IMG/VR virus record: IMGVR_UViG_2061766007_000545 | Length of the DNA stretch: 64,000 bases | Source: an uncultured virus (IMG/VR IMGVR_UViG_2061766007_000545) | Taxonomy: Duplodnaviria; Heunggongvirae; Uroviricota; Caudoviricetes | Strand: one strand, 5' to 3' | In this document: piece by piece, positions 22,499 to 64,000 of the stretch | Layout: the number at the start of each line of letters is the position of its first letter | Numbering within the stretch: the first letter of the stretch is position 1 | Notes under the pieces: model-generated | What the model was told of the DNA's origin: nothing | The model's database searches: none | What the model saw: only the letters and a program-made list of their open reading frames with translations | Made by a program: the position numbers and the translations under genes

Positions 22499-23521
22499 CT
22501 ACCCCTGTCTTTCGTTAAGTCCGTATTCTTTCGAGCCGTAGAAGTTAATCCAATATTTTTCTCTTTCTCCAAGTTTATCCTTTGGTACTTCTTCAAGCAC
22601 TTCAAAGGTAAATTGGTCAACTCCATCTTTTTCCATAGTAGTATGGAGCATTGAATGAGCGATAGTGCCAACACCAAATGCGGTTTTAATGTGCTGTCCC
22701 CATCTATCACGAATATTAGTTGATTTACCGACATAGATTTCTTTAGTTTTAAGTCGAGTTATCTTATAGATACCAGATGGTGCAGAACCATTAAGTACAC
22801 GCTTAATCATTTCTTGCGCGGGTTTTGCTATGTAAGTATCATAGATAATCTTATCAAGAAAAGAACGATTAGAAAGACGAGGCGCAATAGAACGTAGGAC
22901 TTCAATATCTTGTTTAGCAGTATCACTAAGGCAAACTCGATAGAAGTCTTGTTTTTCTTCGATAGCGCGCTGACGAAGTATTTCTTGGTTGATGACTTCG
23001 CGCTTCTCTTTAAAGTCATTAATTATGAAGTCTAATTCAGTAATTTCTATCCGCTTCTTCTGTGCAAGTTCCTCGTTAGTGGCGAGGTACCCTTCGAGTT
23101 CTTTCCGTGCGTCTTCTTTTATTGATTCGAGAAGACGAGCAGTAGTATTACGGTAGTCATTTACTTCGTTGTCGAAATGACGATGGATTTCTTCATTATT
23201 TTTCTCCGTAGAAGTTCTTACGTATTCTGCGCCCGCTCGCTCCTGCGCGTCTCGCATCCGCTGGAATTCCTCAGTGGACTTCTTAGCATCATCTCGCGCA
23301 GAAGTAAGCCGCGCGCCTTGTGCATAGACCTCTGCTTCCAAATCCGAAATTTTCTTCTGTGCTTCCGCATCTAATTCAGCAAAACGACTTTCTAATTCTA
23401 TTCTATATTTATCTACTATTTTATCTCTAAGTTTATTTTCTTCTTTTTTTAATTTACTTCTATATACTATATCTATTATTAATATTACTATTATAATACT
23501 ACTTATAATATATATATACAT
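22499..23521 (-). CDS. Membrane-anchored coiled-coil protein with C-terminal GIY-YIG domain
   Basis: Hydrophobic N-terminus, charged helical middle, SGIYKIT..IYVGKS..RW..H..EREKYWI. Confidence 0.8.
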   Translation of the reverse strand: MYIYIISSIIIVILIIDIVYRSKLKKEENKLRDKIVDKYRIELESRFAELDAEAQKKISDLEAEVYAQGARLTSARDDAKKSTEEFQRMRDAQERAGAEYVRTSTEKNNEEIHRHFDNEVNDYRNTTARLLESIKEDARKELEGYLATNEELAQKKRIEITELDFIINDFKEKREVINQEILRQRAIEEKQDFYRVCLSDTAKQDIEVLRSIAPRLSNRSFLDKIIYDTYIAKPAQEMIKRVLNGSAPSGIYKITRLKTKEIYVGKSTNIRDRWGQHIKTAFGVGTIAHSMLHTTMEKDGVDQFTFEVLEEVPKDKLGEREKYWINFYGSKEYGLNERQG

Positions 23522-23548
23522 AAAATTTACCTCCCGTTTTATAAGTAG

Positions 23549-23577
23549 ATTATACCACAAAACGAGAGGTAAGTCAA
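23549..23577 (-). promoter_or_regulatory. Sigma-A-type promoter
   Basis: TTGACT-17-TATAAT. Confidence 0.78.
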
Positions 23578-50804: not shown

Positions 50805-50833
50805 ATTATATCAAAAATTAGAGAAAAAATCAA
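50805..50833 (-). promoter_or_regulatory. Sigma-A-type promoter (pncA-ligase operon)
   Basis: TTGATT-17-TATAAT. Confidence 0.78.
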
Positions 50834-54048: not shown

Positions 54049-54532
54049 AAGAAATTACTATAAATATCCCGAAAGAAGTAATTGTGGCGGATACGCCCTT
54101 GGATTGGAAGAATGGTATAAACCTTATATTGGTTCTGATGTATTTAGAGAGCGCGCCATCAAACAACGATTGCGTGAGGGTAAAACGATAGAAGAAATAG
54201 AAAAAGAAATTTTGGAGCAAGACACCAAATTTATCCTACAAGATTTCGGTCGCGCGCTGAGTACGACCGAAAATCCACATACAATACCAAATTCCAAAAA
54301 AGTTATTGCTTATCGAATTTGCGTGGATGAAAATTTTGAAGGGATTTATACAGATTACCACTTTAAAGTACGAACCAATGGAGTTTGGTCACACAAACAA
54401 GGTTCAATGAAACCGGAAGAATGCGAGTTAGATGAAGATAAACCTTGGGGATTACTTGAGAATGATGATGAAACCATTCTTCATTATTACGATAGTCCGA
54501 TTGTGTATTTCGTGGTAGAAGAAGAAATTTGA
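54035..54532 (+). CDS. Hypothetical protein with papain-like Cys/His motif
   Basis: NCGGYALG...DYHF...G.WSHK.G. Confidence 0.6.
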   Translation: MTTSKRNYYKYPERSNCGGYALGLEEWYKPYIGSDVFRERAIKQRLREGKTIEEIEKEILEQDTKFILQDFGRALSTTENPHTIPNSKKVIAYRICVDENFEGIYTDYHFKVRTNGVWSHKQGSMKPEECELDEDKPWGLLENDDETILHYYDSPIVYFVVEEEI

Positions 54533-54557
54533 AATTTTTCTGAATTTTTTATATAAT
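54529..54557 (+). promoter_or_regulatory. Sigma-A-type promoter (tRNA array 1)
   Basis: TTGAAA-17-TATAAT. Confidence 0.75.
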
Positions 54558-54877: not shown

Positions 54878-54879
54878 AT

Positions 54880-54950
54880 TACGGGTTGGTGTAAGGGCAG
54901 CATTGTAGATTCTGACTCTACCGATAATGGTTCAATTCCATTACCCGTAG
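54880..54950 (+). tRNA. tRNA-Gln(CTG)
   Basis: Cloverleaf; GTAGA-TT-CTG-AC-TCTAC. Confidence 0.85.
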
Positions 54951-54953
54951 TCT

Positions 54954-55026
54954 TGGGGCGTAGCCAAGTTGGTAAGGCACGGGGTTTTGATCCCCGGATG
55001 CGTAGGTTCGAGTCCTACCGCCCTAG
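54954..55026 (+). tRNA. tRNA-Gln(TTG)
   Basis: CGGGG-TT-TTG-AT-CCCCG, GTTCGAGTC. Confidence 0.92.
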
Positions 55027-55030
55027 CTTT

Positions 55031-55102
55031 GTCTGTATGGTCTAATGGATATGACATCTGCCCTCCAAGCAGAAGATGTGGGTTCAATTCCCACTATGGA
55101 CT
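55031..55102 (+). tRNA. tRNA-Gly(TCC)
   Basis: TCTGC-CC-TCC-AA-GCAGA (C33). Confidence 0.85.
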
Positions 55103-55106
55103 TTTT

Positions 55107-55179
55107 GTCGAGTTCGTCTAGTTGGAAAGGATAGGAGACTCTCAATCTCCAGACACGAGTTCAAATCTCGTACTCGGTA
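55107..55179 (+). tRNA. tRNA-Glu(CTC)
   Basis: GGAGA-CT-CTC-AA-TCTCC. Confidence 0.88.
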
Positions 55180-55187
55180 TTCAGTTT

Positions 55188-55270
55188 GCGCGCGTGGCGG
55201 AATTGGCAGACGCAGGGGACTTAAAATCCCCTTCCCTTTGGGAGTGTGGGTTCGAGTCCCACCGTGCGCA
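55188..55270 (+). tRNA. tRNA-Leu(TAA)
   Basis: GGGGA-CT-TAA-AA-TCCCC, long variable arm. Confidence 0.93.
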
Positions 55271-55537
55271 GTTGCCACAAAGCTAGTGGCATAGGCGGTG
55301 TAGCTAATCGCTTTAAAACCTACCTCAAACAAATAAACAAAATGAGGGTACTTTCGAGAGAAAGAGAAAAGGTAATAGAATTCATAGGTAGACAACTGTA
55401 CGATAGTTTAAAAGATGAGCATAAGAAAACATGCCTATGCAGAAGTAAGGCTGCTTGGACGCAGAAAGGCTTCAAATTTTATTAGGTAAGATAGGAAATA
55501 AGTATAGCGCTGTATTTATTTCTGACTTTTGCCTTAG

Positions 55538-55608
55538 GCCGATATGGTCTAGTGGTACGATTTCTCCTTGCCAAGGAGAGGACGTGGGTTCGATCCCCAC
55601 TATCGGCT
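55538..55608 (+). tRNA. tRNA-Gly(GCC)
   Basis: TCTCC-TT-GCC-AA-GGAGA. Confidence 0.92.
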
Positions 55609-55612
55609 TTAT

Positions 55613-55686
55613 GGGGCCGTGGCGCAATTGGCGAGCGCAGGTGCTTTGCAAGCACAAGGTTGAGGGTTCAACTCCCTTCGGCTCCA
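55613..55686 (+). tRNA. tRNA-Ala(TGC)
   Basis: GTGC-TT-TGC-AA-GCAC, G3-U70 pair. Confidence 0.92.
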
Positions 55687-55692
55687 TTTTAT

Positions 55693-55776
55693 CCGCAGAT
55701 AACCCGTAATTGGCAGCGGTCCTGACTGTAAATCAGGTGTCTTCGGATTCTGGTGGTTCAAGTCCATCTCTGCGGA
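55693..55776 (+). tRNA. tRNA-Tyr(GTA)
   Basis: CCTGA-CT-GTA-AA-TCAGG, long variable arm, C1-G72. Confidence 0.88.
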
Positions 55777-55796
55777 TTTTATTGAAAGGAGAAATC

Positions 55797-56108
55797 ATGA
55801 TAATAGGAAAACTTATTCGTCCTCAAACTTGTGACATGGGTTCTAATTATGTAGAATATGAAATGACAGAAGATATGACTTTAGACCAAGTTCTTGAATG
55901 GATTAAAGAAAATAATATTTGTGCATTTGGAACCATTACTATTAGTTTTAGAGATGGAGACATTCTTCGTAAGTTTGATTATGATTTATTTCACAAAAAT
56001 GAAAGGTCTTTTTATTATAATTTTGGTTGGGAAGGCAAAAAGATTGTAAATAAAATGACTTCTCAAGCTTGTTTTATGTATTGCGATTTTGAGATTCAAT
56101 TAAGATAA
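55797..56108 (+). CDS. Hypothetical protein within tRNA array
   Basis: AAAGGAG RBS, ATG 55797. Confidence 0.65.
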   Translation: MIIGKLIRPQTCDMGSNYVEYEMTEDMTLDQVLEWIKENNICAFGTITISFRDGDILRKFDYDLFHKNERSFYYNFGWEGKKIVNKMTSQACFMYCDFEIQLR

Positions 56109-56112
56109 AGTT

Positions 56113-56186
56113 TGGGGCGTAGCTCAGTCGGTTAGAGCAGTACTCTTATAAAGTAAAGGTCAAGGGTTCAATTCCCTTCGCCCCGA
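56113..56186 (+). tRNA. tRNA-Ile(TAT)
   Basis: TACT-CT-TAT-AA-AGTA, canonical D and T arms. Confidence 0.85.
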
Positions 56187-56303
56187 TTTGTGCGGTGTGT
56201 ACGAGCTTCGCGCCGTATGCGTTGTACAGTATAATAAAAAGGTGGTAAATTTTATGAAGAAACGATTTACTATGGATAAAGTAGAAGATTATGACTTTAT
56301 CCA

Positions 56304-56376
56304 GCCTCGGTAGCTCAACTGGTAGAGCGCAGGCTTGAAGGACCTGGCGTAGTTGGTTCAACTCCAACCCGAGGCA
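56304..56376 (+). tRNA. tRNA-Phe(GAA)
   Basis: CAGGC-TT-GAA-GG-ACCTG. Confidence 0.87.
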
Positions 56377-56468
56377 CTCATGGGTTTGTTGGTTTCCCAA
56401 ATTACACCAAATGAGGCGGGCATAGCGCCAAGAGCGAAAATGGAGTCAAATCTACTATGCGTAAACGC

Positions 56469-56542
56469 GGGCGATTGATGCAACTGGCAGACATACTCGA
56501 TTCAAAATCGAGGTTTTATGGGTTCGATTCCCTTATTGCCCA
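56469..56542 (+). tRNA. tRNA-Leu(CAA), short variable loop
   Basis: CTCGA-TT-CAA-AA-TCGAG. Confidence 0.85.
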
Positions 56543-56551
56543 TTATACTAT

Positions 56552-56624
56552 GCTCGCATAGCTCAGCTGGGAGAGCGCGTGGTCTACACCCACGAGGTCG
56601 GGAGTTCGATCCTCTCTGTGAGTA
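56552..56624 (+). tRNA. tRNA-Val(TAC)
   Basis: CGTGG-TC-TAC-AC-CCACG (C33). Confidence 0.87.
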
Positions 56625-56628
56625 CTTT

Positions 56629-56702
56629 GTTCCGTTAGGCTAATGGAAAAAGACTAAGCGACTTCTAATCGTTTGATATAGGTTCGAATCCTATACGGAA
56701 CA
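56629..56702 (+). tRNA. tRNA-Arg(TCT)
   Basis: AGCGA-CT-TCT-AA-TCGTT. Confidence 0.88.
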
Positions 56703-56719
56703 TCGAAGGGAGAAAAGAA

Positions 56720-57289
56720 ATGTATAAAGGTTTATATGATAAATTTAAAGATTGGTTTCATAATGATAGAGGTAATGTATGGTTTTATTCCGATCCTCAC
56801 TTTAGTGATGAAGAAATGATTTATTTGCGCGCTAACTATATTGGCGATTTAGAGCAAGTAAAACGAATTAACTCTAAAGTAGGTAAATATGATACGATTA
56901 TCTTTCTTGGTGATATTGGAAACCCTGAATACATTTCTAATATTCGTGGATATAAAGTACTTATAAAAGGAAACCACGATAGCGGAAATGCAAATTATGA
57001 AAAGTACTTTGATGAAATTTACGAAGGCGCGCTTTGTGTGTCAGAAAAAATTATACTCAGTCACGAACCAATTTACTTTCCTTTTGCCCTAAATATTCAT
57101 GGACATGACCATTCTAATTGGGAATTCCAAGACGAAATGCATTGGAATGTTTGTGCAGAGTATATTAACTATACTCCTATTAGTTTAAATGATATAATTA
57201 AGTCTGGTAGGTTAAAGAAAATTGATAGTATCCATAGAGTTACGATAGATAAAGCCACGGAAAGAAAGGGAGAGAAAAATGGTGTATAA
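56720..57289 (+). CDS. Calcineurin-like metallophosphoesterase
   Basis: SDPHF, LGDI, KGNHD, LSHEP, HGHDH. Confidence 0.9.
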   Translation: MYKGLYDKFKDWFHNDRGNVWFYSDPHFSDEEMIYLRANYIGDLEQVKRINSKVGKYDTIIFLGDIGNPEYISNIRGYKVLIKGNHDSGNANYEKYFDEIYEGALCVSEKIILSHEPIYFPFALNIHGHDHSNWEFQDEMHWNVCAEYINYTPISLNDIIKSGRLKKIDSIHRVTIDKATERKGEKNGV

Positions 57290-57467
57290 ATTAATATTAG
57301 ATGAAAAAGATATTAGTAAAATTCTATCACAGGTTTTTGTAACAGATGGCGGTAAGCTTGAAGCTTTTTGGAAGGTATATGACGAAGCTGGCATAATGGG
57401 TGATGAGACAAGACTTGAGATTACCTTAACGTCTAGTTCTCCTATTACTCCAATAGAAGATTTTTGA
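57279..57467 (+). CDS. Small hypothetical protein
   Basis: 62 aa, overlaps upstream stop, GGAG RBS. Confidence 0.55.
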   Translation: MVYKLILDEKDISKILSQVFVTDGGKLEAFWKVYDEAGIMGDETRLEITLTSSSPITPIEDF

Positions 57468-57492
57468 TTTTTCTTAAAATTTTTGATATAAT
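57464..57492 (+). promoter_or_regulatory. Sigma-A-type promoter (ncRNA/tRNA array 2)
   Basis: TTGATT-17-TATAAT. Confidence 0.8.
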
Positions 57493-57651
57493 ATATATAG
57501 AAAAGTTGAGAGAGAAATAAAAAAGTTTATAAAAGTTATAGCCTCTGTGACAATTTAGGGTGCTTACGCTATAACTTCTTAAGCGCAAACCTCAAGTTAT
57601 GCCTAATCTGCTGCTATCGCGCTATATAAACTGAGCAGGAAAAGGCAATTC

Positions 57652-57724
57652 GGTTCTATAGTTTAGTTGGTTAAAATACGGCGCTGTCAACGCCGAGTCA
57701 TGGGTTCAATCCCCATTGGAACCG
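57652..57724 (+). tRNA. tRNA-Asp(GTC)
   Basis: CGGCG-CT-GTC-AA-CGCCG. Confidence 0.92.
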
Positions 57725-57951
57725 CGCCCATAGTGGATAGACGGGTTCAGAGATGCCTTAAGGTGTAACTCTATAAAAATACCTTTATTGCAAGGATAAC
57801 TAGTGCCACCTAGGAAACCTTAGCCGGAGTCAAAACAGGGTTTTTCTCCTTATTAATTCAAGGGCGTACGACGCTGAGAGTGAATTAAGTTAAAGGAGGT
57901 TTTCTGATGGCAGCGACTTACGACAACAAAAACAGGCAGAGAAAACTTTTG

Positions 57952-58025
57952 GGGGGTTTAGCTCAGTTGGTTAGAGCGCTTGACTGTTAATCAAGATGTC
58001 CTAGGTTCGAGTCCTAGAATCCCCG
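57952..58025 (+). tRNA. tRNA-Asn(GTT)
   Basis: CTTGA-CT-GTT-AA-TCAAG. Confidence 0.93.
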
Positions 58026-58086
58026 TTGAACAAAAACCTCCTAAAGGTTTTTACTAGTAATGTGCTTGCACTACCCTAGGTTTTTT

Positions 58087-58281
58087 GTGAAGGTTGGCGG
58101 AGTATGTAGGTGTACGCAGTATAAATTCATAGTAATTGGATTCTAAAAAGAATTGGGCGCCACGTGGGTGGCTCGGAGAAAGTTAGGACTTCTCTCAATC
58201 AACTCTACGGGACTATGATACCTCTCTATAATGAATACCCGAACCAAGAGGGAGTCGATTAACTCCAACTCTTGCCTTCAC
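58087..58281 (+). ncRNA. Candidate ~195-nt structured ncRNA (unclassified)
   Basis: Ends pair (GTGAAGGT/GCCTTCAC), internal TCATAGT/ACTATGA and GAGAAAGT/ACTTCTC; no ORF. Confidence 0.45.
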
Positions 58282-58284
58282 TAT

Positions 58285-58356
58285 GCACCCATCGTCGAAT
58301 AGGCAAGACTACTGACTTGTAATCAGTGTATGGCGGTTCGAGTCCGTCTGGGTGCT
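58285..58356 (+). tRNA. tRNA-Thr(TGT)
   Basis: ACTGA-CT-TGT-AA-TCAGT. Confidence 0.9.
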
Positions 58357-58359
58357 CTC

Positions 58360-59165
58360 CCACCACTCGATACTAGTAGGAAAACCGAAGCTTTATTTCG
58401 AGTTAATGTGACTCTAGTGGAATCTTAGGAAAGTCGAGGAACTCGAGGGATATACCCTCCAAGAAGGGTTGAGCCTTCAGCACAGGGGTTTAAGGTCGAA
58501 GTGACAATAGTCATATGGTAAGAACCAGGCATGTAAATGTGCGTTAGTGCGAAAAACCTTAAAGAACCTAACACGCCTCTCAACGATGCGGACCACGTTA
58601 GGTCTGGGAATACTGAAAAACGAGAGCAGTGAGCACACACAGGAATCTCACGCCGTACTAGTCTCCGGTACACGACTATGAGGTGGTAATAGTCCCTCGT
58701 CACGATGTGTAGGTATTCCCGTAATTTGTCGCCTTCGTCTAATTGGCTAGGACAGCGCCCTTTCACGGCGCAAACGTGGGTTCAAACCCCATAGGCGGTA
58801 TATTGGGTAGAAAGATAAACTACCCCTCCCTTCCGAGGGAAAAGGTCCCTGACATCTTTAAGAGTCGACACTTGAAAGGTGCATACCAAACTTCTTATAA
58901 TGGGCAAGCGATAGTCCCATATCGTTAACGCTTCTAACACGGAAGTAAAAATAGGTAGTTGCTCGTAAGGCAAGCTTCGACAGAAAGGCTGACATGAGGA
59001 CTCCGCGGATGTCGTGCCGCGGTATAGAAATGGTTGGACAGTTCTACTAGGGATGACAACTAAAGTAGCAGTATGGAGCATTCTATGTAATGCGGTTGAA
59101 ATGCTGAAGTAGTTTGCGGTGGTTTTGGGGCGACATTTATCCACTTGTCAAAAAGAAAGAGCGTT
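58360..59165 (+). ncRNA. Large ornate ncRNA candidate (one ~800-nt GOLLD-like RNA with embedded tRNA-Glu, or two ~360-nt RNAs)
   Basis: GC-richer, no credible CDS, more than 15 hairpins plus several loop-loop complementarities; family assignment unverified. Confidence 0.6.
58728..58800 (+). tRNA. tRNA-Glu(TTC)
   Basis: GCGCC-CT-TTC-AC-GGCGC. Confidence 0.92.
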
Positions 59166-59170
59166 CATCA

Positions 59171-59244
59171 CGAGGGATACGTCAATTGGCTAGACGGCGT
59201 GCGTTGGATGCACGAGGTTGCGGGTTCGAATCCTGCTCCTTCGA
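59171..59244 (+). tRNA. tRNA-Pro(TGG)
   Basis: CGTGC-GT-TGG-AT-GCACG. Confidence 0.9.
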
Positions 59245-59253
59245 CTCGAAAAT

Positions 59254-59282
59254 TTGAAAATTTTCGGAATTTTTGGTATACT
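59254..59282 (+). promoter_or_regulatory. Sigma-A-type promoter (tRNA array 3)
   Basis: TTGAAA-17-TATACT. Confidence 0.75.
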
Positions 59283-59306
59283 ATATTTACAAAAGTTAAG
59301 AAATAT

Positions 59307-59377
59307 CGCGCTGTGATGTAATGGAAGCATACTAGCCTCATACACTAGAAATACGGGTTCAAGTCCCGTTGGCGCAA
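59307..59377 (+). tRNA. tRNA-Met(CAT), initiator-like
   Basis: CTAGC-CT-CAT-AC-ACTAG, C1:A72 mismatch. Confidence 0.83.
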
Positions 59378-59424
59378 GTCCATTATCTATAGGTGGCGCT
59401 GAATACATAAGAAAGGAAAAAGAA

Positions 59425-59781
59425 ATGGGATATTATACTGATTATTCACTTAAGGTTTATAATGAGAAAGGTCAGTTAATCGATTCAGAAGATAAGGAAT
59501 TCGAAGAAGTACGTAGAGTCTTTTCTGAAAAGGTTGAATGGATAGATTCTGATGACCTTAATGCTCTTAATACTGAACACGGAGTTAATTGGAAGTGGTA
59601 TTCTGCGCGAAGAGATATTGAAGAAATCGCAAAAGAACTTCCTTCTTATTACTTTATTCTCGAAGGACAGGGAGAAGAGAATGGAGATTGGTGGACTCTT
59701 GCTCTTCATGGAACACAAATTTATGAAGACGAAGTAGTTGCACCCGCAAATCATTTTGATGATTTTTGGGTTGCTTATTAA
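59425..59781 (+). CDS. Acidic hypothetical protein
   Basis: MGYYTDYSL...KWY...L.G.GEE..D.W; AAAGGA RBS. Confidence 0.7.
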   Translation: MGYYTDYSLKVYNEKGQLIDSEDKEFEEVRRVFSEKVEWIDSDDLNALNTEHGVNWKWYSARRDIEEIAKELPSYYFILEGQGEENGDWWTLALHGTQIYEDEVVAPANHFDDFWVAY

Positions 59782-59858
59782 GTCCTCGTACGCCAATAGG
59801 AACCAGACGGCTTGACTACGAATCAACGCAGATGTGGGTTCGAATCCCTCCGAGGACA
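59782..59858 (+). tRNA. tRNA-Arg(ACG)
   Basis: TTGA-CT-ACG-AA-TCAA. Confidence 0.85.
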
Positions 59859-59861
59859 TAT

Positions 59862-59947
59862 GCCGCAGTACCTTAGTGGGGAGGAGGGACGGTCTTGAAA
59901 ACCGTTGACCTTCACGGGTCTGTTAGGTTCGAATCCTACCTGCGGCG
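59862..59947 (+). tRNA. tRNA-Ser(TGA)
   Basis: ACGGT-CT-TGA-AA-ACCGT, long variable arm. Confidence 0.9.
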
Positions 59948-59951
59948 CTCT

Positions 59952-60040
59952 GTTTGGGTGGCAGAGTCTGGTCGAATGCGGTGGATTGCTAATCCATTGA
60001 ACATTAAATTGTTCCGAAGGTTCGAATCCTTTCCCAAACG
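59952..60040 (+). tRNA. tRNA-Ser(GCT)
   Basis: GTGGA-TT-GCT-AA-TCCAT, long variable arm. Confidence 0.9.
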
Positions 60041-60112
60041 TTTAAACTAATTTAAAGGAGAACTATGATGAAGCGAAAACATATTCACAAATTAAAATCG
60101 AAGAAAATTTAC

Positions 60113-60184
60113 GCGTCCGTGGCAGACAAGTAATGCACACGACTTTTAATCGTGGATATGTGGGGGCAGTACCCATCGGGCGCA
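60113..60184 (+). tRNA. tRNA-Lys(TTT), non-canonical T-loop
   Basis: CACGA-CT-TTT-AA-TCGTG; T-arm GTGGG-GGCAGTA-CCCAT. Confidence 0.8.
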
Positions 60185-60188
60185 CTAT

Positions 60189-60262
60189 ACCGATGTAGTT
60201 TAACTGGCAAAATAGCTGACTCTTAATCAGTAAGACTGTGGGTTCAACTCCCACCATCGGTA
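60189..60262 (+). tRNA. tRNA-Lys(CTT)
   Basis: GCTGA-CT-CTT-AA-TCAGT. Confidence 0.9.
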
Positions 60263-60264
60263 CT

Positions 60265-60336
60265 GTGGGAGTGGCAGATAGGTAATGCGCTAGATTGTGG
60301 CTCTAGTTTATGCGGGTTCAAATCCCGTCTCTCACC
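60265..60336 (+). tRNA. tRNA-His(GTG)
   Basis: CTAGA-TT-GTG-GC-TCTAG, C73. Confidence 0.9.
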
Positions 60337-60339
60337 TAT

Positions 60340-60414
60340 ACGAGCATAACTCAGTAGGTAGAGTGTCCGTCTGATACGCGGGAAGTCGGTTGGGTTCAAA
60401 TCCCCCTGCTCGTA
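60340..60414 (+). tRNA. tRNA-Ile(GAT)
   Basis: TCCGT-CT-GAT-AC-GCGGG. Confidence 0.85.
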
Positions 60415-60426
60415 CTTACCGAAAAT

Positions 60427-60455
60427 TTGATTTTTTCTTAAATTTTTGGTATAAT
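60427..60455 (+). promoter_or_regulatory. Sigma-A-type promoter (ROOL-like RNA)
   Basis: TTGATT-17-TATAAT. Confidence 0.8.
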
Positions 60456-60480
60456 ATATGTATAGAAAATAAGAAAAGAA

Positions 60481-61085
60481 CTTTGAAAACTTTATAAAAA
60501 GCGTGTTGCAACCTTGTGAAGAGCGTCTAACCAACGCTGCAAGGGCGCCTCGGAACAGCTGAGGAGTCGTCAGAAGGATACTTCAAAACGGCTCAACTTT
60601 CACAGAAATCGAAAGACGAAGTGAGAAGGAGTAAAACTCCAACAGAGAAGAGGTGGCGCAAGGGCAATATGATTATAAGACACGATTCCGGTTTTCCCAA
60701 CAATAGACGCCTCGGTGAGGAATAACCCTATAGACCACATCCGCAAGATGTGAGCCAATGTAGGGAATGCAAAAGCAATGGGAATGCCTCGACACTACGT
60801 CAGAAATGGCGTAGAACCGGTTTGCGGTACGAGTAGCCTAAGAGGCGTAATATTTCTAAAATAGTTGACATTAATTATTGGGCAAATGTTATTAATCTGA
60901 ATGGTTGGTGAAAGTTAGGGGTACATGAATCCCCTTCGAGACAGTGGTTCCGAAAGGAACTGGGGTAAGAAGTTATACGGCGACGGCTGTATGGCTCAGA
61001 CTTATCTCCTCGGTGGTCGAATAATAAAGGTTATTGAGGGAGTATAGCGAAGGCTAGCAATATACTTTTTATAAAGTTTTTAAAG
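60481..61085 (+). ncRNA. Large structured ncRNA, probable ROOL RNA
   Basis: ~605 nt with no CDS, 29-nt terminal complementary arms, many short-loop hairpins, own sigma-A promoter, tRNA neighbourhood; family assigned from recalled size/context/motifs, not from a search. Confidence 0.72.
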
Positions 61086-61147
61086 AAAAGAAAAGGAGTT
61101 AAGTTATGATGAGACGATGGTGTATGGAGCAGCACATTAAGTAATAT

Positions 61148-61218
61148 GCGGCTCTAGTGTAATGGTAACATGGCGGTCTCCAAAACCGCAGATTAGGGTT
61201 CAACTCCCTAGAGTCGTG
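61148..61218 (+). tRNA. tRNA-Trp(CCA)
   Basis: GCGGT-CT-CCA-AA-ACCGC. Confidence 0.92.
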
Positions 61219-61222
61219 CTTC

Positions 61223-61296
61223 GGCATTGTACTCAAGTGGATTAAGAGGCGGGGCTGCAACCTCCGTAGTCGTTGGTTCGAATCCAACCAATGCCT
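61223..61296 (+). tRNA. tRNA-Cys(GCA)
   Basis: CGGGG-CT-GCA-AC-CTCCG, U73. Confidence 0.92.
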
Positions 61297-61310
61297 CTTT
61301 AATAATATAT

Positions 61311-61383
61311 GCCCCGATAGTCGAACGGCATAGACGCTTGTCTTAGGAACAAGTATTTGGGGGTTCAAATCCCTCTCGGGGTA
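61311..61383 (+). tRNA. tRNA-Leu(TAG), short variable loop
   Basis: CTTGT-CT-TAG-GA-ACAAG. Confidence 0.85.
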
Positions 61384-61550
61384 CGCCGCGGTAACAAAGG
61401 TATATACCTAGGGGTAAAGAGAATAGAGATAGTATGGGACGCTCGAGGGACTAACCTCGTTCTGCGCTTTGCCAGAGAATTTAAAGTGCGCAACCCATGC
61501 CCCGGCGTTTTTGTAGTGGCGCTCGAAGTAATACACTACGATAGAAGGTT

Positions 61551-61617
61551 AGTCTTATGGTCTAATTGGACAAGGACGCGCAAAAGCGAGGTAGGGGTTC
61601 GATTCCCTTTAAGACAA
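61551..61617 (+). ncRNA. tRNA-like RNA lacking a normal anticodon arm
   Basis: Acceptor GTCTTA/TAAGAC, D arm, T arm AGGGG-TTCGATT-CCCTT; anticodon arm reduced to CGC-AAAA-GCG. Confidence 0.75.
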
Positions 61618-61643
61618 TTTATTTTATTTTGGAGGAAAAGAAA

Positions 61644-61979
61644 ATGCCGTTTTCATTTACTACTACAAATTTACTAGATGATATCTTTCTTTCTGCTGAT
61701 TGTAGACTTGTTGTTCGATCTCAATCTCGTGTTGAACGATTTAAAAATCTTGTAAAGGTTGTGTTTAAGAATAAGGATAAAAGAATTTTTGGAGTAAAGC
61801 TTTCTAATGGCGAAGTAATTACTGTTAAGTGTGCCGAGAATGATACTTGGGATGAAGAGAAGGCATTGCTTGCATGCTTCGCAAAGTGGGAAGCCGGTAA
61901 TAATGGTACATTCAATAAGCTCTTTAGCTTACTTGATAATGTAGTAGATACTTCGAAAGGACAAAAGAAAAATGACTAA
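61644..61979 (+). CDS. Hypothetical protein
   Basis: GGAGG RBS; V.C...D.WDEEKA motif. Confidence 0.65.
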   Translation: MPFSFTTTNLLDDIFLSADCRLVVRSQSRVERFKNLVKVVFKNKDKRIFGVKLSNGEVITVKCAENDTWDEEKALLACFAKWEAGNNGTFNKLFSLLDNVVDTSKGQKKND

Positions 61980-62106
61980 TAAAGATAAATATAATCTGAT
62001 GTTCGCGCGCTATGTAACTTTGAGCGAAAAGCCGAAAAACATTAAGTCAGGTGGAGTACTACGGAAGCTGCGCCGTAAGCTGCGCGCAATGAAAAAAGAC
62101 AATTAA
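61972..62106 (+). CDS. Small basic protein (44 aa)
   Basis: MTNKDKYNLMFARY...KNIKSGGVLRKLRRKLRAMKKDN; overlaps upstream stop; below ORF-track cutoff. Confidence 0.55.
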   Translation: MTNKDKYNLMFARYVTLSEKPKNIKSGGVLRKLRRKLRAMKKDN

Positions 62107-62139
62107 CTAATTTTTGTTTCCTGTTTTTCTTTTCTTATC

Positions 62140-62173
62140 GGGGTTACTCGATAGAGTAACCCCACCTCTTTTT
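62140..62173 (+). terminator. Probable terminator hairpin
   Basis: GGGGTTACTC-GATA-GAGTAACCCC. Confidence 0.6.
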
Positions 62174-62191
62174 CTTAGAAAGGATTCGCTT

Positions 62192-62401
62192 ATGTATAAA
62201 ATGACAAAAGTAAACTCAAGTGCGATTGCAGAAATTGGTTATGATAAAGATACGGGTACTTTGAAAATTACTTTTAATAGTGGTTTAGAGTATGAATATC
62301 CAAACTTTGAAGAAGCGCAATATAAAGAATTTCTTCATGCGCCTTCAATAGGAAAATATTATAATAAGAATATACGCTCAAGCTTCTCAATAAAAAGATA
62401 G
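62192..62401 (+). CDS. KTSC domain protein
   Basis: VNSSAIAEIGYD...L.I.F.SG..Y.Y...APSIGKYYN..IR. Confidence 0.9.
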   Translation: MYKMTKVNSSAIAEIGYDKDTGTLKITFNSGLEYEYPNFEEAQYKEFLHAPSIGKYYNKNIRSSFSIKR

Positions 62402-62466
62402 AACAAATAATAAAAACTCCCACTTATAAATGTAGGGAGTTTTTTTAATATGGAGGATTATAAAGA

Positions 62467-63093
62467 ATGGCGAAGAATGACTTGACCATTAGAATTCCAA
62501 ATTTGGCAAAGGAAACAATGCCACTTCCCGATCCAGAGCTACTTCAGTTTTATAGGGAATATGAAAATAGAATTATTTGGCTTATAGATGAGATTGGAGA
62601 TGAAGTCTATAGTGTGATGCAAATGATTCTACAATTTAATAGAGAAGATGAGGAGATTGCCCCTGAAGATAGAAAACCTATCCGATTAATTATCGCTTCA
62701 CCCGGCGGTACGCTTGATTGCGCGCGCTCATTGGTTTCTATTATGAGACTTTCAATAACCCCAATTTATACAATTGCTGTTGGAAGCGTAGCTAGCGCAG
62801 CTTCTATGATTTATCTCGCAAGTAATCGTAAATTTGCAATCCAAGGTGCGTCCTTCCTTTTCCATCAAGGGAGTTGCGATAATGTAAGCGGTAGCTATGC
62901 AGAAGTTACTGCTTTTGCAGATAATTATAAGAAAATTATTTCTGATATGACAGAATTTTATAAAACACATACAAAGTTTCCAAGTGAAGTTATTGAAGAA
63001 AAAATTCAAAAAGATTGGTATATTGGTCTTGATGAAGCACTTGAAAATGGAGTAGTAGATGAAATTATAGAAGATATTAGTATACTTCTGTAA
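62467..63093 (+). CDS. clpP: ClpP-like protease subunit
   Basis: IASPGG, ASAAS catalytic Ser, FHQ, EALENGVVD. Confidence 0.88.
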   Translation: MAKNDLTIRIPNLAKETMPLPDPELLQFYREYENRIIWLIDEIGDEVYSVMQMILQFNREDEEIAPEDRKPIRLIIASPGGTLDCARSLVSIMRLSITPIYTIAVGSVASAASMIYLASNRKFAIQGASFLFHQGSCDNVSGSYAEVTAFADNYKKIISDMTEFYKTHTKFPSEVIEEKIQKDWYIGLDEALENGVVDEIIEDISILL

Positions 63094-63105
63094 TGAAGGA
63101 GGAAT

Positions 63106-63942
63106 ATGAACGAACTCAATTATACGGGTTACATTGAAGCAGACTTGAATGATGAAAGTCTTGCTGAACTCATAGAAAAGGGAACGTCTAAAATACTTAG
63201 TACAACTACGGAGAATCAGTACGTAATCGCGCACGATGAACATGGAAAAGAAGTTTATTTTAAGTGTAAAAATGGGAAATATGAATTAGTTAAATATCCT
63301 TTTATAAATTCGATACTTACTGGTCAGTTGAAGCCGAGAAACCCTCAGCAGTATTGCGCGATGGATATGTTACTTGATGAAAGTATTCCGGTTAAATTGA
63401 TTACGGGTAAGTTTGGTAGTGGTAAGACATTGGCTTGTATTGACTTTGCAATACAGGCAATTGAAGCAGGAAAATTTGAGAAGATTGTATTTGTAAGGAA
63501 TAATGTACAGGTGGCTAACACAGATAGTTTGGGTGCGCTTCCCGGTGACGAGTTGGAGAAGACGCTGCCTTATGTGATGCCTTTTGCTGACCACTGCGGT
63601 GGAAAGGATGGGTTGATGCGCTTGATTCATGATGAAAAGTTGGAAGTTATTCCACTTGCTTTTCTGCGCGGGCGCAGTATACGTAATGCCATCATTTACT
63701 CTATGGAGTCGGAGAACCTTACAAAGGAGCAGATTCAGTTAATTATGGGGCGCGTAGACGAGGGTTCTATCTTGGTTATGGACGGTGATATAAAGCAGAG
63801 AGATAAAGCTGCTTTTGAGAAGTCGATGGGACTTGAGAGAATGGTGAGCGCGCTTAAGGGGAATAAATTATTTGGATATATTCATTTAGTAAAATCAGAA
63901 AGAAGTGAGGTTAGCGCGCTTGCGGATTTACTTGATGAATAA
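63106..63942 (+). CDS. phoH: PhoH-like ATPase
   Basis: GKFGSGKT, LGALPG, FLRGRS, GD..Q.D, RS..S.LA. Confidence 0.9.
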   Translation: MNELNYTGYIEADLNDESLAELIEKGTSKILSTTTENQYVIAHDEHGKEVYFKCKNGKYELVKYPFINSILTGQLKPRNPQQYCAMDMLLDESIPVKLITGKFGSGKTLACIDFAIQAIEAGKFEKIVFVRNNVQVANTDSLGALPGDELEKTLPYVMPFADHCGGKDGLMRLIHDEKLEVIPLAFLRGRSIRNAIIYSMESENLTKEQIQLIMGRVDEGSILVMDGDIKQRDKAAFEKSMGLERMVSALKGNKLFGYIHLVKSERSEVSALADLLDE

Positions 63943-64000
63943 GGAGACGCAATGGGAAGAAAAGGGATTGGACATATTACGAGTTTTACCGGCGCCGGCG

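Follow-up and report, generated by a model that had tools for sequence, protein, structure and literature searches.

A 605-nt region on the + strand (60481-61085) of a 64,000-nt stretch of DNA from an uncultured tailed virus, hereafter referred to as the window, had previously been read, without database searches, as a ROOL-like RNA with its own promoter. This reading raises the questions whether the RNA is a genuine member of the ROOL family, how it is produced, and whether it would assemble in the same way as the ROOLs with solved structures. ROOL came to light in sequence data from the cow rumen; members of the family, with an average length of 581 nt, are located close to tRNAs and within prophages (Weinberg et al. 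2017, PMC5737381). The cages they form are described as RNA-only and as either octameric or hexameric (PMC12286853, PMC12990946). What is stated in these sources agrees with the background given in the sequence-only reading, namely RNAs of about 600 nt, found near tRNAs, that form multimeric cages. As detailed below, 60481-61085 (+) very probably is a ROOL gene with its own promoter, situated among the clustered tRNA genes of a large, uncultivated phage of the tailed type; by homology, its RNA would form a cage.

Identity of the RNA

The Rfam covariance model for ROOL (RF03087) matches the + strand of the window at 60488-61075 with a score of 292.4 bits (E = 4.3e-66), the gathering score of the model being 99.1 bits. 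The match is full-length, covering positions 1-574 of the 574 in the model without truncation. The family call, which had been made on size, context and motifs, is borne out by this search with the Rfam model. The Rfam match measures 588 nt, and the gene is lengthened to 605 nt (60481-61085, +) by the extended closing helix P1. At the gathering threshold, Rfam otherwise matches nothing in the whole 64-kb window but 30 tRNAs, every one of them on the + strand, from 54880 to 61617; the same scan gave no match to GOLLD.

For comparison, viral contigs were collected that contain a conserved ROOL motif (17 specified bases), amounting to at least 83 loci. Twenty loci, picked from the 28 with a blastn match to the window ROOL, were scanned with Rfam. 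All 20 proved to be ROOLs, 19 of them full length, with scores ranging from 160 to 347 bits. As the 292.4 bits of the window ROOL fall inside this range, it can be considered a typical copy of the family. A profile built from the Rfam-confirmed loci picks up a ROOL at 77 of the 83 listed loci that contain the motif. Six loci (L019, L031, L034, L057, L068 and L072) have neither a profile match nor a tRNA and were discarded as chance matches to the motif.

Searching the 605-nt sequence by blastn ('distant' mode) against 50,697 phage records yielded no match, and the nearest viral contigs among the matches listed are 67-70% identical to it. The window ROOL is, in other words, an ordinary further copy of a catalogued family, with a sequence that is new to the collections searched. 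Since ROOL was discovered in the rumen, this sequence may already sit in published alignments. The variant with a CGCAA loop that characterizes the window and its closest relatives (see below) was not found in the published ROOL alignment (supplementary file 4), the gapped and partial text of which is uninformative as to whether the clade is included.

Phage and tRNA island

The gene content of the window is that of a large tailed phage, with genes for RecJ, primase, DnaB helicase, Sak4, topoisomerase II and ligase, in addition to tail proteins, a prohead protease and PhoH. Its PolC/YorL-type DNA polymerase is 38% identical to that of SPbeta-like Bacillus phages. DNA runs containing the complete stretch are labelled bovine gut metagenome. 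Two further features concern the replication genes. The C-terminal 90 residues encoded by an ORF in the replication module (22499-23560, - strand) match GIY-YIG homing endonucleases, and the GC skew turns from negative to positive at about 24000, where the replication genes on the - strand give way to genes on the + strand.

The tRNA island extends over approximately 6.7 kb (54879-61617) and contains 28 tRNAs according to ARAGORN and 30 according to Rfam, all on the + strand and together covering all 20 amino acids. Rfam alone calls tRNAs at 55695-55774, 60113-60184 and 61551-61617 (+), and the island includes a tRNA-Ile with anticodon UAU (56112-56187, +). A shared strand is also the rule elsewhere: around the 83 motif loci listed, 231 tRNA genes lie on the strand of the motif versus a single one on the opposite strand, and for 48 of the 83 the retrieved flank includes one or more tRNAs on that strand.

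Together with five IMG/VR contigs (L024, L044, L055, L071 and L088), the window makes up a subclade, which was built from the nearest relatives plus one contig retrieved by a clade-specific pattern search. Both complete subclade contigs (186 kb, and 181 kb with terminal repeats) encode the same polymerase, at 36-51% identity; no match to the YorL-type polymerase was obtained in the three fragmentary ones.

Several other contigs of the comparison set deserve mention. In L006, L050 (344-645, - strand) and L051 (1751-1831), Rfam tmRNA matches (93 and 59 bits) adjoin the ROOL on the tRNA strand, so that some ROOL phages also carry a tmRNA-like gene. Just upstream of the ROOL in L010, a 190-kb viral contig, ARAGORN calls a suppressor-type tRNA with anticodon UUA (oriented positions 633-705), which may hint at stop-codon recoding. 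Finally, L029 and L042 are located on the same 402-kb viral contig, so that this very large phage has two ROOL genes about 200 kb apart.

Secondary structure and pseudoknots

The RNA is closed by helix P1, in which the 5' arm (60481-60509, +) pairs with the 3' arm (61057-61085, +) over 29 nt through 25 Watson-Crick and 3 G-U pairs, leaving one mismatch (28 of 29 paired; 86% when only Watson-Crick pairs are counted). In 300 random 645-nt segments from the same window, the best pairing of 29-mers from end to end covered at most 24 of 29 positions (mean 18.7), versus 28 here. The terminal pairing described in the sequence-only reading is therefore real, and its 'one mismatch' is correct if G-U is taken as a pair. 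The hairpins and motifs named there are likewise all present at the expected places on the + strand: stems CCTCGG/CTGAGG (60548/60559), GAGTCGT/ACGGCTC (60564/60588) and CACATC/GATGTG (60736/60747), hairpins CTACGTCA-GAAA-TGGCGTAG (60795) and GTTCC-GAAA-GGAAC (60947), and motifs GTTTTCCCAA (60691), GAGTAGCC (60831) and GGTGAAAGTT (60907).

Folding of the region gives -202.6 kcal/mol for the + strand (z = -7.1, 20 shuffles) and -160.1 kcal/mol for the - strand (z = -4.0). In an alignment of the six subclade members, 52 of the 169 predicted pairs show double compensatory changes, and five positions of P1 have compensatory changes. Across 19 diverse ROOLs, double changes are found at 19 of the 20 predicted P5-P9 pairs.

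Two pseudoknots could be anchored in the window ROOL and both are intact; the third one of the 2017 description was not located. The first is formed by TGCCTC (60785-60790, +) and GAGGCG (60842-60847, +), and three of its six pairs differ from those of other subclade members by double changes (alignment columns 328-333 x 387-392). We infer that it corresponds to 'P10' of PMC12286853. In the second, TCTGA at the flank of the linker (60896-60900, +) is the perfect complement of TCAGA in J17/18 (60996-61000, +). When mapped by means of conserved motifs, these strands would be equivalent to the covarying pairs 458-461 x 578-581 of the env-120 ROOL. The linker itself, a variable A/U-rich segment at about 60848-60895 (+), is gapped and of low posterior in the Rfam alignment and cannot be aligned among subclade members. 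In solved cages, the ROOL linker is reported to be disordered and to point inward (PMC12286853).

Inter-subunit contacts and assembly

By homology with the solved ROOLs, the window ROOL would assemble, free of protein, into a hollow shell of dihedral symmetry with the linker inside. ROOL is described as a D4 octameric shell, in which the in-plane bridge B4 connects L8 to J6/8 and is called 'highly conserved' (Kretsch et al., PMC12286853). For env-120, B4 is annotated with three covarying pairs only, 307-335, 308-334 and 309-333 (supplementary table 3, PMC12286853), and the equivalent contact in the Enterococcus faecalis ROOL is given as 3 bp (PMC12990946).

In the window, the B4 partners are the L8 loop CGCAA (60742-60746, +), which sits on stem CACATC/GATGTG and is shorter than in most ROOLs, and the J6/8 strand AATGCAAAAGCAAT (60766-60779, +). 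Three candidate pairs link them, G60743-C60770, C60744-G60769 and A60745-U60768, in a register that moves J by 1 nt from its place in the family alignment. L8 is the 5-nt CGCAA in all six subclade members, versus 6-9 nt elsewhere among the matches listed, and J6/8 reads AAUGCAAA or AACGCAAA in the subclade. In L044, L055 and L071, a C takes the place of the U in J, leaving two B4 pairs without compensation in L8.

The pairing between L8 and J was evaluated over the family in two ways. In a register-specific test of five pairs, based on a structure-blind profile alignment and on 43 of 57 distinct rows (the 14 with a gap in a scored column being omitted), 137 of 215 cells are Watson-Crick, compared to 105.5 ± 5.5 after shuffling; none of 2000 shuffles reaches the observed number. 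These counts are lowered by 1-nt alignment shifts in L047, L038, L025, L033, L036, L004 and L021, all of which score 4-5 in the second, register-free test. In the latter, covering 49 distinct combinations, a complementary run of at least 4 is present in 86% of matched L8/J pairs versus 36% of mismatched ones. With two to three pairs, the window and its subclade show the lowest complementarity among the 49 combinations.

Complete loss of B4 in the subclade was considered and rejected, as env-120 and E. faecalis also have three pairs and the window can form three. On the basis of its sequence, the window ROOL has probably kept B4 in a minimal, shifted form. A 6-nt complement of L8, TTGCGG at 60820-60825, is missing in the other subclade members and was attributed to chance.

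B6 of env-120, a self-pairing bridge between shells, is annotated as L18:L18 (supplementary table 3, PMC12286853). Its counterpart in the window is the L18 hairpin tip C-GACG-G (60981-60986, +). Among 66 distinct 3' segments of the family in the matches listed, L18 is of the CGACG type in 12, TCGCT in 39 and TAGCT in 8. The hairpin directly following GGTGAAAGTT had also been considered as the self-pairing inter-shell loop, a candidate that was dropped since supplementary table 3 places B6 in L18.

Because its L8/J complementarity is the weakest of the 49 combinations, assembly of the window ROOL could differ from that of the solved examples. Carried to its conclusion, this would mean that the RNA is a true ROOL but that the subclade, via its shortened B4, assembles otherwise: with another stoichiometry, as an open half-shell or without a stable cage. 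Such an outcome would fit the 5-nt loop maintained throughout the subclade, its position at the bottom of a distribution in which most matched pairs reach a run of four, the uncompensated U/C difference in J, and the report that minor alterations of the secondary structure suffice to turn a ROOL hexamer into an octamer or the reverse (PMC12990946). Nevertheless, the octamer of env-120 itself has only three covarying B4 pairs, the E. faecalis contact consists of 3 bp, exactly the number that the window can form, and the CGACG-type L18 is common to 11 other distinct family members. We judge a departure from the known assemblies to be unlikely. In a broader sense, the subclade, with B4 cut to a 5-nt CGCAA loop (two to three possible pairs) and, in most members, a ROOL closely flanked by tRNAs, might represent an assembly variant, a reading that we put forward as doubtful. 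If the shortened B4 alters subunit number or shell closure, the subclade would offer a natural variant for dissecting ROOL assembly, and if the reading is true its tRNA-flanked copies would show maturation of ROOL by RNase P and tRNA 3'-end enzymes.

Promoter and probable transcription unit

Directly upstream of the ROOL, a consensus scan identified a sigma-70-type promoter site (60427-60455, +; 10/12 plus TG), composed of a -35 element TTGATT (60427-60432), a 17-nt spacer and an extended -10 element TGgTATAAT (hexamer 60450-60455). It ends 25 nt before the start of P1. The promoter belongs to an extended 29-nt motif, TTGAWW-N8-AATTTTT-N2-TATAMT, of which a pattern search found five exact copies in the window versus none in 100 shuffles: 50805-50833 on the - strand and, in the tRNA island, 54529-54557, 57464-57492, 59254-59282 and 60427-60455 on the + strand. 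The other + strand copies likewise precede groups of tRNAs, and the motif probably defines a promoter class of the phage's own. Similarity between the copies, A-rich upstream and 'ATAT' downstream, reaches beyond the pattern. Since the motif recurs five times where none is expected, the claim that the ROOL has its own promoter gains support beyond the consensus match.

The promoter copy is located in a 65-nt spacer between P1 and the last gene of the upstream tRNA cluster, a tRNA-Ile (GAU) called by both ARAGORN and Rfam (60340-60415, +). Transcription would start near 60462. On the other side, genes for tRNA-Trp, tRNA-Cys and tRNA-Leu (UAG) (61148-61384, +) start 62 nt past P1. The terminator scan found no terminator-like site between tRNA-Ile and the ROOL or between the ROOL and tRNA-Trp. 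Outside tRNA genes, the first hairpin plus T-run downstream of the ROOL is located at 62140-62163 (+), and the sole other + strand site before it (61271-61293) lies inside tRNA-Cys. The transcript would probably run on into tRNA-Trp, tRNA-Cys and tRNA-Leu, yielding a ROOL-tRNA co-transcript in which RNase P, by cutting where tRNA-Trp begins (61148), would define the 3' terminus of the ROOL. Co-transcription of ROOL with tRNAs was suggested by Weinberg et al. (PMC5737381).

The spacer downstream of P1 contains a mini-ORF (61095-61144; 12 codons from 61106, MMRRWCMEQHIK) with GGAG 7 nt upstream. It has a Trp codon next to a Cys codon and stops 3 nt short of tRNA-Trp and tRNA-Cys. Its interpretation as a leader peptide was rejected, as ten distinct pairings of a Shine-Dalgarno sequence with a mini-ORF occur in the 7.7-kb array, which is chance level, and is further disfavoured by relatives that are without this spacer.

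The arrangement in the relatives is different. In all five other subclade members, only 3-12 nt separate P1 from the tRNA upstream, which in L044 and L055 is the same tRNA-Ile (GAU) as in the window, and in L055, L024 and L088 a further tRNA starts 5-10 nt after P1. Because these tRNAs abut P1, there is no room for a promoter before the ROOL in the closest relatives, and a promoter is consequently not a feature of the ROOL family. There, the RNA would be released by tRNA-processing enzymes alone. By contrast, TTGACT-17-TATAAT immediately precedes the ROOL of L033, which is less closely related. Where the P1 ends could be placed, a tRNA was found within 20 nt on the upstream side at 6 of 18 loci and on the downstream side at 3 of 11; these are rough figures, since for most of the 72 distinct ROOLs among the matches listed the profile alignment stopped short of the AT-rich ends of P1.

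Given these relatives, the window ROOL itself might lack a working promoter and be made only by read-through from the tRNA cluster, followed by excision by tRNA-processing enzymes. The closely abutting tRNAs in the subclade and in part of the placeable loci, the co-transcription proposed in PMC5737381 and the uninterrupted stretch between tRNA-Ile and the ROOL, where no terminator-like site was found, would all suit such a scenario. On the other hand, precisely the 65-nt spacer that is absent in the relatives carries an exact copy of the 29-nt motif, the remaining + strand copies stand before tRNA groups as well, and a promoter and read-through can coexist. Production by read-through only is thus quite improbable, and we retain the reading in which the window ROOL has its own promoter.

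Presence in RNA libraries

Metatranscriptome contigs that are 98-100% identical to 60528-61042 were retrieved from four RNA libraries of rumen or gut origin, belonging to two studies. Run X5 contains a 468-nt contig covering 60575-61042 with one difference, at a depth of 78.7. Contigs of 164 nt and 151 nt without differences are present in run X11, and runs X14 and X17 add three contigs with 2-3 differences. These RNA-library contigs, which are assembled, carry no strand, ends or level and may include DNA carry-over, are consistent with expression of the ROOL. For the protein-coding part to the right (61216-64000), no contig was found in the four RNA libraries, an uncovered part that proves nothing.

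Runs X5 and X11 additionally contain contigs with a depth of 106-206 and loose ends, matching only 60688-60774 and 60962-61009 before they diverge. As these deep contigs match conserved segments only, other ROOL variants appear to be abundant in the same rumen metatranscriptomes.

That the locus would be a decaying, non-functional relic, or that the region would in truth be protein-coding, is extremely improbable: no supporting point was found in this analysis, the only overlapping ORFs (96 aa and 52 aa) both lie on the - strand, the covariance model is covered in full with a score typical of the family, compensatory changes keep the stems with respect to relatives that are 67-70% identical, and near-identical sequence is present in RNA libraries.

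Possible function and significance

Speculated roles of ROOL and other cages include the encapsulation of tRNAs, ribosomes or other cargo (PMC12286853, PMC12990946), and the titles and abstract openings returned by a search for newer ROOL literature indicate no functional study. Since the ROOL shares its strand, and probably its transcripts, with the phage tRNAs, it is tempting to see in it an RNA container or sponge tied to the tRNA and translation programme of the phage, which might, for instance, hold tRNAs, shield them or bind ribosomes. This is a tentative guess, for which genomic linkage is the basis.

Few natural RNAs are known to form, without protein, a cage that exceeds the ribosome in size, and ROOL is one of them. 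The window ROOL adds no new principle to this; it is a well-delimited example, with signs of expression in rumen RNA libraries, in a phage with a complete tRNA set. Modest extras are the recurring motif, through which its promoter is recognisable because the phage reuses it, the difference from relatives whose ROOL is flanked by tRNAs, and the shortening of the B4 loop. The latter two lend themselves to simple constructs for studies of ROOL maturation and assembly.

Comparison with known cage RNAs

Like ROOL, GOLLD is a large ornate RNA of phages and prophages that is found beside tRNA clusters and forms an RNA-only cage, in its case a 14-mer with an inward linker (PMC12286853). In sequence and fold, however, it is unrelated, and the Rfam scan of the window gives only ROOL and tRNAs.

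Within the ROOL family, solved structures comprise an octamer, tetramer and monomer from E. faecalis and a hexamer from a Lactobacillus salivarius megaplasmid (Wang, Xie, Su; PMC12990946, bioRxiv 10.1101/2025.04.15.649049). Their in-plane loop-bulge contact, J11/9-L11', is described as 3 bp, and three pairs are possible in the window. For the L. salivarius ROOL, an abundance equal to that of 16S rRNA is reported (same sources), with which the high depth of the window contigs in RNA libraries is in keeping. In contrast to the window ROOL, which resides in a large phage of lytic appearance, these RNAs, compared here by description, are encoded on the chromosome or a megaplasmid of cultivated Lactobacillales.

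The closest likeness is to the octamer of env-120 from cow rumen (Kretsch et al. 2025, PMC12286853) and the ROOL family around it. The window ROOL differs in having a P1 of 29 bp versus 16-17 in the Rfam model, an L8 of 5 nt (CGCAA) allowing at most three B4 pairs in a shifted register, and a promoter of its own where its nearest relatives have none; moreover, its sequence is unmatched in the 50,697 phage records, and the nearest viral contigs listed are 67-70% identical. In the following respects it conforms to the family: it belongs to RF03087 as env-120 does, measures 588-605 nt against an average of 581 nt (PMC5737381), has a closing helix, pseudoknots and an unconserved linker expected to face inward, and is encoded by a phage, within a tRNA island and on the strand of the tRNAs, in a metagenome of bovine gut or rumen type.
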